A DNA stretch of 5,544 nt from a virus (lineage: Duplodnaviria; Heunggongvirae; Uroviricota; Caudoviricetes), in IMG/VR virus record IMGVR_UViG_2778261247_000002, positions 1 to 5,544 of that record; one strand, written 5' to 3'. How positions within the stretch are numbered: the stretch's first letter is position 1; each line of letters begins with the position of its first letter. Below are positions 1 through 5,544 of the stretch, one piece after another. The notes beneath the pieces are model-generated. The model was not told where the DNA came from, searched no databases, and saw only the letters and a program-made list of their open reading frames with translations. Both the position numbers and the translations under genes were made by a program.

Positions 1-284
1 AGGAGGCAACCAGCCGGATTGGCGTGGGGAATCTTTACCGGCTGATGCGCGGCTATGCCACCGGCGGTTATGTCGGTACACCGGGCAGCATGGCGGACAG
101 CCGGTCGCAGGCGTCCGGGAAGTTTGAGCAGAATAACCATGTGGTGATTAACAACGACGGCACGAACGGTCAGATAGGGCCACAGGCGCTGAAGGCGGTT
201 TATGACGTAGCCCGTAAGGCGGCAATGGATGTTGTGACCGGGCAGATGCGTGATGGTGGTCTGTTCTCCGGAGGTGGACGATGA
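1..284 (+). CDS. H: Tail tape-measure protein, C-terminal end (5'-partial; reading frame phase 3, stop TGA 282-284)
   Basis: The frame is open from the window edge with no upstream stop. The translation (GNLYRLMRGYATGGYVGTPGSMADSRSQASG...MRDGGLFSGGGR) matches the C-terminus of lambda gpH as I recall it. Its stop overlaps the start of M (ATGA), as in lambda. Confidence 0.9.
   Translation, partial: EATSRIGVGNLYRLMRGYATGGYVGTPGSMADSRSQASGKFEQNNHVVINNDGTNGQIGPQALKAVYDVARKAAMDVVTGQMRDGGLFSGGGR
270..274 (+). promoter_or_regulatory. Shine-Dalgarno (GGAGG) for M, 6-nt spacer to ATG 281
   Basis: GGAGG is read directly at 270-274, upstream of the ATG at 281. Confidence 0.6.
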
Positions 285-610
285 AAACCTTCCGCTGGAA
301 AGTGAAACCGGGTATGGATGTGGCTTCGACTCCTTCCGTCAGGGAGGTGCGCTTTGGTGATGGTTACTCCCAGCGCGCGCCTGCCGGGCTGAATGCCAAC
401 CTGAAAACGTACAGCGTGACGATTTCTGTCCCCCGTTGGGAGGCCACGGCGCTGGAATCGTTTCTGGCAGAGCACGGAGGCTGGAAAGCCTTTCTGTGGA
501 CGCCGCCTTATGACTGGCGGCAGATAAAGGTGACCTGCGCAAAATGGACGTCGCGGGTCAGTATGCTGCGTGTTGAGTTCAGCGCAGAGTTTAAACAGGT
601 GGTGAACTGA
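281..610 (+). CDS. M: Minor tail protein M (tail tip assembly), 109 aa
   Basis: ORF of 109 aa (MKTFRWKVKPGMDVASTPSVREVRFGDGYSQRAPAGLNANLKTY...) with the same length and sequence as lambda gpM as recalled. Start overlaps the H stop (ATGA) and is preceded by GGAGG. Confidence 0.95.
   Translation: MKTFRWKVKPGMDVASTPSVREVRFGDGYSQRAPAGLNANLKTYSVTISVPRWEATALESFLAEHGGWKAFLWTPPYDWRQIKVTCAKWTSRVSMLRVEFSAEFKQVVN
597..602 (+). promoter_or_regulatory. Shine-Dalgarno-like AGGTGG for L
   Basis: AGGTGG lies 7 nt upstream of the L ATG at 610. The M stop and L start overlap (TGATG), consistent with translational coupling. Confidence 0.5.
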
Positions 611-1308
611 TGCAGGATATCCGGCAGGAAACACTGAATGAATGCACCCGTGCGGAGCAGTCGGCCAGCGTGGTGCTCTGGGAAATCGATCTGACAGAGG
701 TCGGTGGTGAACGCTATTTTTTCTGTAATGAGCAGAACGAAAAAGGTGAGCCGGTCACTTGGCAGGGGCGGCAGTATCTGGCGTATCCCATTCAGGGGAG
801 TGGTTTTGAATTGAATGGCAAAGGCACCAGTACGCGCCCCACGCTGGCAGTCTCTAACCTGTACGGCATGGTCACCGGGATGGCGGAAGACCTGCAGAGT
901 CTGGTCGGCGGAACGGTGGTCAGGCGTAAGGTTTATGCCCGTTTTCTGGATGCGGTGAACTTCGTCAACGGAAACAGCGACGCCGATCCGGAGCAGGAGG
1001 TGATTAGCCGCTGGCGCATCGAGCAGTGCAGCGAATTGAGCGCGGTCAGTGCCTCCTTTGTACTGTCCACGCCGACTGAAACGGATGGTGCCGTTTTTCC
1101 GGGGCGCATCATGCTGGCTAATACCTGCACCTGGATCTATCGCGGTGATGAGTGCGGTTATAACGGTCCGGCGGTCGCGGATGAATATGACCAGCCGACG
1201 TCCGATATCACGAAGGATAAATGCAGCAAATGCCTGAGTGGCTGTAAGTTTCGCAATAATGTCGGCAACTTTGGCGGCTTCCTTTCCATTAACAAACTTT
1301 CGCAGTAA
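610..1308 (+). CDS. L: Tail tip assembly protein L, 232 aa, with C-terminal cysteine cluster
   Basis: ORF of 232 aa (MQDIRQETLNECTRAEQSASVVLWEIDLTEVGGERYFFCNEQNEKGEP...) matching lambda gpL in length and sequence as recalled. Conserved Cys codons sit at 1126, 1153, 1222, 1231 and 1243. Confidence 0.95.
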   Translation: MQDIRQETLNECTRAEQSASVVLWEIDLTEVGGERYFFCNEQNEKGEPVTWQGRQYLAYPIQGSGFELNGKGTSTRPTLAVSNLYGMVTGMAEDLQSLVGGTVVRRKVYARFLDAVNFVNGNSDADPEQEVISRWRIEQCSELSAVSASFVLSTPTETDGAVFPGRIMLANTCTWIYRGDECGYNGPAVADEYDQPTSDITKDKCSKCLSGCKFRNNVGNFGGFLSINKLSQ

Positions 1309-1313
1309 ATCCC

Positions 1314-2057
1314 ATGACAGAGACAGAATCAGCGATTCTGGCGCACGCCCGGCGATGTGCGCCAGCGGAGTCGTGCGGCTTCGTGGTGAGAACGCCGGAA
1401 GGGGAAAGATATTTTCCCTGCGTGAATATCTCCAGTGAGCCGGAGGAGTATTTCCGGATGTCGCCGGAGGACTGGCTGCAGGCAGAGATGCAGGGTGAGA
1501 TTGTGGCGCTGGTCCACAGCCATCCCGGTGGTCAGCCCTGGCTGAGTGAGGCGGACCGGCGGCTGCAGGTGCAGAGTGATTTGCCGTGGTGGCTGGTCTG
1601 CCGTGGGGAGATTCATAAATTCCGCTGTGTGCCGTATCTCACAGGGCGGCGCTTTGAGTACGGGGTGACGGACTGTTACACGCTGTTCCGGGACGCTTAC
1701 CATCTGGCGGGGATTGAGATGCCGGATTTTCATCGCGAGGATGACTGGTGGCGTCACGGTCAGAATCTCTATCTGGATAATATGGAGACAACGGGGCTGT
1801 ATCAGGTGCCGTTATCAGCGGCACAGCCCGGCGATGTGCTGCTGTGCTGTCTGGGTTCATCGGTGCCGAATCATGCCGCCATTTACTGTGGCGACAGTGA
1901 GCTGCTGCACCATATTCCTGAACAACTGAGCAAACGAGAGAGGTATACCGACAAATGGCAGCGACGCACACACTCCCTCTGGCGTCACCGGGCATGGCAC
2001 GCATCTGCCTTTACGGGGATTTGCAACGATTTGGCCGCCGCATCGACCTTCGTGTGA
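1314..2057 (+). CDS. K: Tail tip assembly protein K, 247 aa, two-domain (N-terminal JAMM/MPN-like, C-terminal NlpC/P60-like)
   Basis: ORF begins 6 nt after the L stop. HSH(x7)S(x2)D motif at 1515-1556 and a Cys/His/His set (DCYTLF Cys at 1674-1676, His at 1872-1874, HH at 1908-1913). Sequence matches lambda gpK as recalled. No strong SD upstream, so the start is probably coupled to L. Older lambda annotation starts at the internal Met equivalent to 1458 here. Confidence 0.88.
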   Translation: MTETESAILAHARRCAPAESCGFVVRTPEGERYFPCVNISSEPEEYFRMSPEDWLQAEMQGEIVALVHSHPGGQPWLSEADRRLQVQSDLPWWLVCRGEIHKFRCVPYLTGRRFEYGVTDCYTLFRDAYHLAGIEMPDFHREDDWWRHGQNLYLDNMETTGLYQVPLSAAQPGDVLLCCLGSSVPNHAAIYCGDSELLHHIPEQLSKRERYTDKWQRRTHSLWRHRAWHASAFTGICNDLAAASTFV

Positions 2058-2596
2058 AAACGGGTTCCGAAGCCATCCGGGCGCTGGCCACGCAGCTCCC
2101 TGCGTTTCGTCAGAAGCTGAGCGACGGCTGGTATCAGGTACGCATTGCCGGGCGTGATGCAGGCGAAAACGAATTATCTGCCCGTCTTAATGAGCCGCTG
2201 GCAAATGGTGCCGTGATCCACATAGTACCGCGTCTGGCGGGTGCCAAAAGTGGTGGTGTTTTTCAGGCAGTGCTGGGTGCGGCGCTGATTGCTACGGCGA
2301 TCTGGATGCCAGGAATCAGTATCGCTTTCAGTAACATTCTCTTTTCTATGGGGGCAGCTATGACGCTTGGTGGTGTCGCACAGATGCTGGCCCCTAAACC
2401 CAAAACTCCACGTACACAGACAACGGATAACGGCAAACAGAACACCTATTTCTCCTCACTGGATAACATGGTTGCCCAGGGCAATGTCCTGCCTGTTCTG
2501 TACGGTGAAATGCGCGTGGGGTCACGTGTGGCATCTCAGGAGATCAGCACGGCAGATGAAGGGGATGGTGGTCAGGTTGTGGTAATTGGGCGGTAA
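1955..2596 (+). CDS. I: Tail tip assembly protein I, 213 aa (ubiquitin-like N-terminus, hydrophobic central segment)
   Basis: ATG at 1955 lies inside the 3' end of K in a different frame (103-nt overlap, as in lambda). N-terminus (MAATHTLPLASPGMARICLYGDLQRFGRRIDLRVKTG) and C-terminus (KQNTYFSSLDNMVAQGNVLPVLYGEMRVGSRV.SQEISTADEGDGGQVVVIGR) match lambda gpI as recalled. The central Gly/Ala-rich segment is shorter and divergent. Confidence 0.9.
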   Translation: MAATHTLPLASPGMARICLYGDLQRFGRRIDLRVKTGSEAIRALATQLPAFRQKLSDGWYQVRIAGRDAGENELSARLNEPLANGAVIHIVPRLAGAKSGGVFQAVLGAALIATAIWMPGISIAFSNILFSMGAAMTLGGVAQMLAPKPKTPRTQTTDNGKQNTYFSSLDNMVAQGNVLPVLYGEMRVGSRVASQEISTADEGDGGQVVVIGR

Positions 2597-2601
2597 TATT
2601 A

Positions 2602-2630
2602 TTTACTCATGTTCTAACTGATTTAATATT
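2602..2630 (+). promoter_or_regulatory. Putative sigma70 promoter for the lipoprotein moron (-35 TTTACT 2602-2607, 17-bp spacer, -10 TAATAT 2625-2630)
   Basis: Hexamer matches of 4/6 and 4/6 with ideal 17-bp spacing, in an AT-rich stretch directly upstream of the lipoprotein ORF. An alternative -10, GATAAT, is at 2644-2649. Pattern match only. Confidence 0.3.
2603..2611. repeat. Left copy of 9-bp direct repeat (TTACTCATG) flanking the AT-rich insert
   Basis: TTACTCATG at 2603-2611 versus TAACTCATG at 3023-3031 (8 of 9 identical, core ACTCATG identical). The copies sit at the two compositional boundaries of the insert. Confidence 0.35.
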
Positions 2631-2668
2631 TATATCGAACACTGATAATTATTCTGTTGGTTAGCTAT

Positions 2669-3007
2669 ATGAACAAAACGATTTTATTCTGCACGATTAT
2701 TGCTTTAACAGGATGTAAATCTTTGGATTACGTAAAATCCGGGAAACCTGTAATGGAAGGTAATTCATTAAAAAATGTTGATGAATTGTCAGGCTGCATA
2801 TCCAGACAATGGGCTGGTAATGGAACACCTATAACATCCCTTCCTATTGAGAATGGGGTAAGCCTTTTAGTTCCACAGGCTATGGGTGGGTATGATGTTG
2901 TGCTTGATATCAAAAAAGCAGGAAATGGCAGTAGTTTTACTCTTTATGAACGCGTACCAGCACTAACGCCAAAAATTTTTGCTGATAGTGTTAATGCATG
3001 TAAATAA
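2669..3007 (+). CDS. Small secreted lipoprotein, 112 aa, unknown function (candidate moron / superinfection-exclusion protein)
   Basis: N-terminus MNKTILFCTIIALTG-C is a canonical lipoprotein signal peptide with lipobox LTGC; residues after the Cys are K and S, with no Asp at +2. Two further Cys in the mature part (SGCIS, NACK). The ORF track begins at an upstream TTG (2657), but the ATG at 2669 gives the canonical signal peptide. No strong SD, so the exact start is uncertain. Confidence 0.75.
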   Translation: MNKTILFCTIIALTGCKSLDYVKSGKPVMEGNSLKNVDELSGCISRQWAGNGTPITSLPIENGVSLLVPQAMGGYDVVLDIKKAGNGSSFTLYERVPALTPKIFADSVNACK

Positions 3008-3022
3008 TAGTTAATCCTGCCG

Positions 3023-3031
3023 TAACTCATG
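3023..3031. repeat. Right copy of 9-bp direct repeat (TAACTCATG) flanking the AT-rich insert
   Basis: See the left copy at 2603-2611. This copy sits exactly at the AT-rich to GC-rich transition, immediately before the hairpin. Confidence 0.35.
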
Positions 3032-3059
3032 AGCCGCCTTTTGGGCGGCTTTGTTGTTT
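3032..3059 (+). terminator. Rho-independent terminator-like hairpin (AGCCGCC / loop TTTTG / GGCGGCT) followed by TTGTTGTTT
   Basis: Perfect 7-bp GC-rich inverted repeat at 3032-3038 and 3044-3050 with a 5-nt loop and a T-rich tail at 3051-3059. It lies downstream of the lipoprotein stop and 14 nt upstream of the J start. Confidence 0.6.
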
Positions 3060-3061
3060 AT

Positions 3062-3065
3062 GGAG
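3062..3065 (+). promoter_or_regulatory. Shine-Dalgarno (GGAG) for J, 8-nt spacer to ATG 3074
   Basis: GGAG is read directly at 3062-3065, upstream of the ATG at 3074. Confidence 0.5.
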
Positions 3066-3070
3066 TGTGA

Positions 3071-5544
<2,474 letters not shown>

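Follow-up and report, generated by a model that had tools for sequence, protein, structure and literature searches.

The stretch of DNA analyzed here (the window: 5,544 nucleotides, positions 1 to 5,544 of the Caudoviricetes record IMGVR_UViG_2778261247_000002 in IMG/VR) is the distal end of a lambda-type tail operon, as judged from its open reading frames (ORFs) and their Pfam matches. Between the tail tip genes I and J it contains a gene for a small lipoprotein, which runs from ATG to TAA at 2669-3007 on the plus strand. The gene encodes a precursor of 112 amino acids, from which a mature protein of 97 residues, including the lipidated cysteine, would be produced. An identical coding sequence of 339 bp is present in a prophage that is 100% identical to the window, where RefSeq describes the product as a ‘hypothetical protein’ (WP_157921128.1). 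The protein belongs to PHROG 914. We conclude that the ORF at 2669-3007 has not arisen by chance but is a real gene under selection, because homologues are present in other genera, the AlphaFold2 model is confident, and the E. coli copies show an excess of synonymous polymorphism without premature stops. Among these copies, 13 haplotypes differ at 10 synonymous and 6 non-synonymous sites; 57 of the 61 copies sampled are intact, and none of these 57 full-length copies carries a premature stop.

The N-terminus of the protein (MNKTILFCTIIALTG followed by CKSLD...) has a signal-peptide architecture that is alike across the family alignment. The lipoprotein signal peptide comprises residues 1-15 (2669-2713, plus strand, as for the codons that follow), with MNK as n-region and TILFCTIIAL as hydrophobic core. 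The AlphaFold2 confidence score (predicted local distance difference test, pLDDT) falls below 50 at residues 1-3 and 8-15, in keeping with a signal that is cleaved off. The lipobox L13-T14-G15-C16 (2705-2716) places the predicted lipidation site at Cys16 (codon TGT, 2714-2716) and a lysine at position +2. Aspartate at +2 is an inner-membrane retention signal in E. coli. A lipobox is found in 125 of 128 family members, none of these 125 has Asp at +2, and within the close subfamily the motif G15-C16-K17-S18-L19-D20 does not vary. An earlier note, made from the sequence of this DNA alone, had described a lipoprotein signal without Asp at +2, and this description holds as a family-wide pattern. 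The protein is therefore best regarded, on the strength of this pattern, as a putative outer-membrane-type lipoprotein.

Two further cysteines in the mature part, also pointed out in the earlier note, turn out to be conserved across the family. Cys43 (codon 2795-2797) is located in a predicted helix of residues 37-50, and Cys111 (codon 2999-3001), the penultimate residue, lies at the end of the helix formed by residues 103-111. In an alignment of 65 members, these two cysteines and the lipid-attachment cysteine are the only invariant residues, and both Cys43 and Cys111 are retained in 116 of the 125 lipobox-bearing members. The conserved pair Cys43 and Cys111 may form a disulfide.

Disrupted forms of the gene are also found. 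Four of the 61 sampled E. coli copies, in the IMG/VR prophage contigs L067, L068, L069 and L078, are frameshifted or truncated (gapped blastn or partial matches), and the database proteins P0002 and P0018 are frameshift products. In E. coli c1-17 (NZ_CP189959; locus L100, 608-1305) the insertion sequence IS1B is inserted at the 5' end of the gene, and the remnant is annotated as a protein of 84 amino acids without signal peptide (WP_001300316.1). Such truncated forms of 84-85 amino acids are frequent in databases, for example P0003, with 134 member sequences.

The lipoprotein gene lies on a moron-like accessory segment of about 450 bp (2593-3042, plus strand) that is inserted relative to phage lambda and extends from the stop codon of I to a conserved hairpin at the I-J junction, close to the start of J. 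When compared with lambda by blastn, the window aligns only at 186-2592 and 3043-5539; the lambda I and J sequences that flank the insert are 89-95% identical to the window, and pairwise alignment shows that the insert replaces the I-J spacer of about 60 bp in lambda. The guanine and cytosine (GC) content is 0.30-0.41 in the insert and 0.55-0.59 in the flanks. For the lipoprotein gene itself it is 0.37, against 0.58 in the flanks, and a similar contrast is seen for the Klebsiella, Kluyvera and Enterobacter copies. The segment has two of the properties of a moron in the sense of Juhala and Hendrix (an independent accessory transcription unit in a phage genome), in that it is extra DNA between conserved genes and deviates in base composition. 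It is carried by approximately 334 of 5,426 complete E. coli genomes (~6%); the I-J junction query has at least a partial match in 4,309 E. coli genomes, at 8,724 places.

Between the lipoprotein gene and J, a scan for terminator-like sites found a GC-rich hairpin with a T-rich tail (3031-3061, hairpin 3031-3051, plus strand). The hairpin is conserved in lambda (locus L081, ~2460-2500) and in phage N15 (locus L097, 4308-4331), where it is annotated as a putative rho-independent terminator, and in all three phages it directly precedes J within the late tail operon. Its presence at this junction in lambda and N15 means that the hairpin is not specific to the insert, and we rejected the possibility that the E. 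coli copy has brought its own terminator: the insert landed upstream of a pre-existing hairpin, which is borrowed. A hairpin and T-run follows every copy of the gene, and copies in other slots have their own one.

The earlier note had called the lipoprotein an orphan, which does not stand. The protein matches PHROG 914 over its full length (residues 1-112 on positions 1-118 of a profile of 118; expect value (E) 1.1e-32), and this family, of unknown function, is the sole match in the PHROG scan at E ≤ 1. A profile search of 1.8 billion representative sequences yielded about 126 clusters at E ≤ 1e-3, nearly all with proteins of 105-125 amino acids. Homologues with 50-63% identity are found in Klebsiella, Kluyvera, Enterobacter, Citrobacter, Salmonella and Jejubacter, conservation across genera reaches down to ~22% identity, and further members occur in environmental metagenomes, in Burkholderia and in an Antarctic Pseudomonas phage. 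The statement in the same note that no named family could be recognized was borne out. Neither Bor, Iss, Ail, Lom nor any other Pfam family matches the window protein at E ≤ 1, and for 65 members Pfam gave nothing at E ≤ 0.01 except three isolated matches at chance level. NCBIfam contains no family for the window protein (the single line, VirB7 with E 0.078, reflects signal-peptide similarity), and the window protein and four homologues matched none of the PADLOC-DB defense models at E ≤ 1. The label ‘YceK’, assigned by the Joint Genome Institute to one distant member, was not taken as meaningful, as no match to Pfam DUF1375 appeared.

AlphaFold2 predicts the structure with a mean pLDDT of 86, and with values above 90 across the mature domain. 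The order of the predicted elements is helix, strand, long helix, four-stranded sheet and C-terminal helix, consistent with a small helix-grip alpha+beta domain of about 96 residues. In a fold search, the nearest solved structure was that of the Francisella protein Flpp3, an outer-membrane lipoprotein which has been described as a determinant of virulence. The match to Flpp3 is no better than that to many unrelated helix-grip domains (DUF302, KA1), and we did not assign the protein to the DUF3568/Flpp3 family, with which it shares 6-12% identity and for which there is no Pfam DUF3568 match. The family is uncharacterized although it is common. It is unrelated to the characterized exclusion lipoproteins and has a different fold.

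The location of the gene varies among phages. In Klebsiella and Kluyvera it follows K and precedes I, and the J proteins encoded further downstream have 1,600 to 3,367 amino acids. The HK97-like prophages of Enterobacter and Citrobacter carry it between the genes for the tail chaperone T and the tape measure protein. The gene for P0022 (38% identical) is the last gene of an accessory island, directly upstream of I. All enterobacterial copies lie within the late tail operon and point in the same direction as its genes. Distant members (25-36% identity) from Burkholderia and from the Pseudomonas phage phiAH14a are encoded outside tail modules. In a Burkholderia gladioli prophage, the homologue is located 418 bp downstream of a gene for a cI-like repressor, is co-oriented with it, and has its own strong terminator. 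In the inducible phage phiAH14a, the homologue (35.7% identical to family member P0024) is part of the operon of a cI-like repressor. One distant member is a lone opposite-strand gene among phage replication genes, and one lies in an integrative island. A profile scan of genome contigs with a narrow alignment gave a single locus, and the contigs of the very distant members P0033, P0052, P0064 and P0107 are too short to show their surroundings. All contexts examined are phages, prophages or integrative islands, and none is a core-chromosome context.

From these positions the gene appears to be a portable, self-contained accessory gene of phages and mobile elements, and neither a component of the tail machinery nor a partner of J. 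The hairpin and T-run behind each copy is what would be expected of a self-contained unit. The positions of distant members beside cI-like repressor genes are typical of genes that are expressed in lysogens, and they give indirect support to a possible expression of the gene from the repressed prophage.

Several of these loci have further features. In the lineage of P0022 (loci L082-L084, ~3400-8000), the island is a 4.5-kb segment at the K-I junction inside the tail operon, which encodes a SocA/Panacea-domain protein, two Arc-like repressors, Bro-N/ANT and KilA-N antirepressor-like proteins and, once, an FtsK-gamma-domain protein. In the B. gladioli prophage (locus L091, 11584-13288), the lipoprotein homologue is followed, after a few kb, by a bAvd-like gene and a reverse transcriptase gene, a combination suggestive of a diversity-generating retroelement. 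The phiAH14a homologue (locus L099, 5962-6309; NC_074659, 14637-14984, complement) is mis-annotated, being split into gp34 and a gp33 of 93 amino acids without signal peptide; the full ORF encodes a lipoprotein of 115 amino acids, beginning MRIAALGLAVALLSGC... Directly after it, in the repressor-side operon and outside the tail module, is gp32 (locus L099, 6367-6948), a second, orphan I-like gene for a protein of 193 amino acids with a hydrophobic central segment. In the satellite AH14b, an I-like gene is followed by a lipoprotein gene (PMC4936722).

The earlier note had placed the lipoprotein gene next to the receptor-binding gene and proposed that its product masks the receptor used by this J variant. 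The first statement is correct in so far as the gene abuts the 5' end of J; it abuts I equally, and the receptor-binding part of J is encoded ~3.3 kb downstream. The second is not supported by the distribution of the J tips. From 69 IMG/VR loci and additional genome loci we collected 37 complete E. coli J proteins encoded downstream of the lipoprotein gene. Their C-terminal parts fall into four types (n = 26, 6, 3 and 2), three of which are mutually 46-65% identical over the last 180 amino acids and 43-49% identical to the LamB-binding tip of lambda, whereas the fourth is unrelated. A single sequence variant of the lipoprotein is found upstream of all four types. Conversely, the J tip of the type associated with the window is present at ≥90% identity in at least 56 phage records, including PhiR47_1, 2G7b and Stx2a phages, and the lipoprotein in none of 50,697 phage records (tblastn; megablast likewise found none). 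Phage phiAH14a, matched using a divergent query, is the only sequenced phage in which a family member was found. Around the homologues, nearby J proteins range from 1,050 to 3,367 amino acids and have unrelated tips, and other homologues are encoded far from J. This double dissociation argues against a cognate receptor mask: the lipoprotein does not travel with the J tip, and therefore masking of the receptor of this J variant is unsupported.

We tentatively hypothesize that the lipoprotein is the product of a portable, envelope-acting accessory gene, and that it most likely serves as a superinfection-exclusion factor that is not keyed to the receptor-binding domain of J. The accessory segment has landed in several intergenic slots of siphophage tail operons and beside prophage repressors. 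In this proposal, the helix-grip domain would be displayed in the periplasm, stapled by the Cys43-Cys111 disulfide, and the prophage-encoded factor would block incoming phages from the periplasmic face of the outer membrane. The target may be an entry step that is common to phages with different J tips, rather than the receptor of the adjacent tip. We propose both the exclusion function and its target by analogy. The arguments for them come from context, namely the confinement of the family to mobile elements, its presence in slots that are known for exclusion genes expressed in lysogens, the precedents Llp and Cor, and a spread over hosts and environments that would suit a role between phages. 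An exclusion-type role had been put forward as an analogy in the earlier note, and we consider it reasonable in view of the slot shared with gene 15 of phage HK97 (see below) and of the neighboring cI-like repressors.

Several observations weigh against this proposal. A strict consensus scan of the plus strand of the window found no promoter, and the best upstream candidates in a relaxed scan match 8 of 12 hexamer positions (score 9 including the spacer bonus). Strict and relaxed scans upstream of five copies likewise found no convincing or slot-conserved promoter, and none of the E. coli, Klebsiella, Kluyvera and Enterobacter copies has a convincing sigma-70 promoter. Because of this, and because only 32 bp separate gene K from the start of the Klebsiella copy, expression of the tail-operon copies might be confined to late lytic growth. 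Free phages with the same tail genes have been sequenced, and all of them lack the lipoprotein gene; since, in addition, some copies are frameshifted or disrupted by IS1, the gene is dispensable. The names of the family members in their source databases are only ‘hypothetical protein’, ‘Lipoprotein’ and ‘Phage protein’. The PHROG, PADLOC, Cor and Llp comparisons revealed no homology to a known exclusion or defense protein, and the fold, as predicted, is uninformative.

Among the alternatives, the one that survives best, although we consider it unlikely, is that the protein is a lysogenic-conversion lipoprotein like Bor or Lom, which would alter the surface or envelope of the lysogen (serum resistance, adhesion or stress tolerance) and have no role between phages. 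The gene shares its accessory neighborhood at the tail end of the operon with lom, its carriers include clinical and pathogenic E. coli (enteroaggregative E. coli (EAEC) 042 and blood isolates), and Flpp3, the nearest solved fold, is linked to virulence. However, there is no Pfam match to Bor or another family, and no member was seen in a core-chromosome context. The members from metagenomes, from the Antarctic Pseudomonas phage and from Burkholderia do not point to a host-specific function either, and because of this environmental, multi-genus spread a phage-versus-phage role fits better than host-specific virulence.

We hold it to be improbable that the lipoprotein is a factor like Cor or Llp that hides the outer-membrane receptor of the adjacent J, excluding phages that use the same receptor or shielding progeny from debris. 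It would fit a small outer-membrane-type lipoprotein with a conserved cysteine pair, whose gene is located immediately upstream of J in E. coli, and the dominance of one tip type (26 of the 37 complete J genes). The association of an identical lipoprotein variant with four J types, one of them unrelated, the occurrence of the tip in phage records without the lipoprotein, and the homologues beside unrelated tips or far from J all speak against it, as does the lack of a relationship to Cor or Llp in sequence or fold past the signal peptide.

A late lytic function, in which the gene is transcribed with the tail operon and its product stops progeny from adsorbing to, or ejecting their DNA into, debris, or modifies the outer membrane at lysis, seems to us similarly improbable. 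T5 Llp is credited with protecting progeny, and the orientation of the enterobacterial copies within the late tail operon, the lack of a good promoter in the scans and the short gap in Klebsiella would all agree with late expression. Yet distant members are encoded in repressor-side operons or otherwise outside late operons, the terminator-like hairpin behind each copy would be needless for a simple operon member, and protection of progeny by a receptor mask predicts a linkage to the J tip, which is absent. Finally, that the gene is a decaying or functionless ORF hitch-hiking in an AT-rich insert, as its dispensability might suggest (absence from phages with the same tail genes; frameshifted and IS1-interrupted copies), is hardly credible given the invariant cysteines and the lipobox that persist across genera at identities as low as ~22%, the confident fold prediction, and the largely intact E. 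coli copies with their synonymous excess.

A speculative alternative, in which we have little confidence, names a specific target. In this reading, the lipoprotein would act as a gatekeeper against the tail tip protein gpI and not against the phage receptor, capping or blocking the insertion of its helices H1-H2 from the periplasmic side, and would exclude phages by their H1-H2 type whatever their J tip; we regard this as a long shot. In recent cryo-EM work, the two hydrophobic helices H1-H2 of gpI leave the opened tail tip of lambda and have been proposed to insert into the host outer membrane, starting the conduit for the DNA (PMC11101478, PMC12617516). An outer-membrane lipoprotein anchored in the inner leaflet could plausibly block this step because of its position at the periplasmic side. 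The I protein of the window is 80% identical to lambda I overall and differs exactly in the central hydrophobic segment, a mosaic patch that corresponds to H1-H2 (residues ~100-150; 2252-2404, plus strand), identified by comparison with lambda I and with its role taken from the structural work (PMC11101478). In the window the segment is of the type …AIWMPGxSIxxSNxxFSxGA…. The same ‘IW(M/V)PG’ type of H1-H2 is common to the I proteins, otherwise 37-38% identical, of those Klebsiella and Enterobacter phages in which the close lipoprotein subfamily is found, and N15 gp20, which is 65% identical to the Klebsiella I protein and has no lipoprotein neighbor, has a different segment.

The lipoprotein gene also flanks the I gene in several arrangements: between I and J in E. 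coli, between K and I in Klebsiella and Kluyvera, between the island and I in the P0022 lineage, and directly before the orphan I-like gene in phiAH14a. In Enterobacter, the I and lipoprotein genes are 5.7 kb apart. As a control, we examined phage records that match the segment, and 26 of 87 matching records had the IWMPG type of H1-H2 without the lipoprotein; two lipoprotein-bearing lineages (L070 and L080) lack an IWMPG-type H1-H2. The association is one-way and marginal (p ~ 0.07 in a rough binomial estimate in which shared ancestry is not controlled). The idea that a special subtype of I as a whole accompanies the lipoprotein was rejected, in view of the overall identity between the I proteins of lambda and the window. 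Separately, a 22.5-kb viral contig (L044, IMGVR_UViG_2695420744_000007) contains three I genes, at 4520, 9556 and 13855, two of them of the lambda type and one of the IWMPG type beside the lipoprotein gene, which suggests tandem or mis-assembled tail modules.

The remaining genes of the window follow the order of the lambda tail operon. Upstream of the insert are the 3' end of the tape measure gene (24-284), the tail genes M (281-610), L (610-1308) and K (1314-2057), and gene I (1955-2596, plus strand), which was identified by the Pfam family Lambda_tail_I. The longest I frame overlaps the 3' end of K by ~100 nt (1955-2057), as in the lambda annotation, and RefSeq places the start of I later, at window position ~2021. 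Downstream, J (3074-5544, plus strand; Pfam FNIII-A_GpJ, Phage-tail_3 and Ig_J) is represented by its N-terminal 823 residues. It runs off the window, so that the receptor-binding C-terminus lies outside, and in the 100%-identical prophage the full-length protein has 1159 amino acids. An ORF of 472 codons antisense to J (4004-5422, minus strand) has no support as a gene; its simplest explanation is the GC-rich codon pattern of J. The 100%-identical sequence is part of a complete lambdoid prophage at dusA in E. coli AR_0089, and a copy with 98.8% identity is found in another prophage, near trp, in EAEC 042. In both prophages, J is followed by lom and then by side-tail-fiber genes.

The family moves between slots of the tail operon, and it is found in prophages of Klebsiella, Enterobacter, Citrobacter, Burkholderia and Pseudomonas as well as in ~6% of complete E. 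coli genomes. If the exclusion function is correct, exclusion lipoproteins would comprise two structural classes, the second of which, this family, would be aimed at something other than the cognate receptor, and this would bear on the prediction of phage susceptibility in clinical Enterobacteriaceae. If the insertion of gpI is the target, the lipoprotein would open to genetics a step in the DNA delivery of siphophages that has so far been seen only in structures.

The proposal can be compared with several known systems. As helix-grip domains, Flpp3 (DUF3568) and the N-terminal domain of BamC are structural comparisons; Flpp3 is encoded on the chromosome, whereas the lipoprotein described here is phage-borne. 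Bor of lambda is a small lipoprotein. Like Bor/Iss and Lom, the lipoprotein is the product of a prophage accessory gene and a predicted outer-membrane protein, and its prophages have lom directly after J. Lambda bor adjoins the lysis genes, whereas the lipoprotein gene is located between I and J, and we rejected membership of the Bor/Iss family, to which there is no Pfam match. In phiAH14a, the lipoprotein gene p83 lies beside tail gene I, and a Cor-like role was proposed for it by analogy (PMC4936722). However, p83 is not a member of the family; the true member is gp33/gp34 in the repressor operon, followed by the orphan I-like gene.

Gene 15 of HK97, the founding moron, is expressed in the prophage state, and its product excludes superinfecting phages while leaving their receptors unblocked (PMC3594210). 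The lipoprotein gene resembles it as an AT-rich accessory insert in a lambdoid tail operon, and the Enterobacter homologue occupies the exact slot of gene 15. The products differ, in that gp15, a small protein of the inner membrane, belongs to the YebO family and not to the lipoproteins, and it has no sequence relationship to the protein described here. Prophage expression of gene 15 has been demonstrated, whereas for the window gene the scans found no promoter.

Llp and Cor represent the best-understood way in which coliphages, temperate and virulent ones alike, shut the door behind them, acting from the periplasmic face of the outer membrane. To our knowledge, all characterized exclusion lipoproteins belong to this one loosely related family, which is tied to FhuA-type receptors. 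Both are precedents for small periplasmic outer-membrane lipoproteins that exclude phages and have a disulfide constraining their termini, in Llp between Cys11 and Cys58 (PMC9586334). Like Llp and Cor (of phi80, N15, T1 and HK022), the protein described here is a small phage lipoprotein with a lipobox and without an inner-membrane retention signal, encoded among tail genes, with a conserved cysteine pair (here Cys43 and Cys111) whose predicted disulfide would link the C-terminus back to a preceding stretch of the chain. Kinship with Cor or Llp, to which the earlier note drew an analogy, did not survive the sequence and fold checks. With N15 Cor, hhalign aligned 29 columns covering the signal peptide and first residues (probability 68%), with a BLASTP E of 0.77; with Llp it aligned 20 columns of the signal peptide, and the sequence search of the PDB touched the Llp structure (8a60_B) over residues 1-20. 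Llp (8a60) was absent from the matches of the fold search, and no similarity to Llp in sequence or fold was found beyond this. The mature domain has ~96 amino acids, against ~60 in Cor and Llp, and whereas the latter are found in FhuA-dependent phages, the lipoprotein is not co-inherited with one receptor-binding domain. Outer-membrane lipoproteins encoded by prophage accessory genes are thus already known as a kind of thing; what is new here is an unrelated family with a different fold that is uncoupled from the receptor-binding domain.

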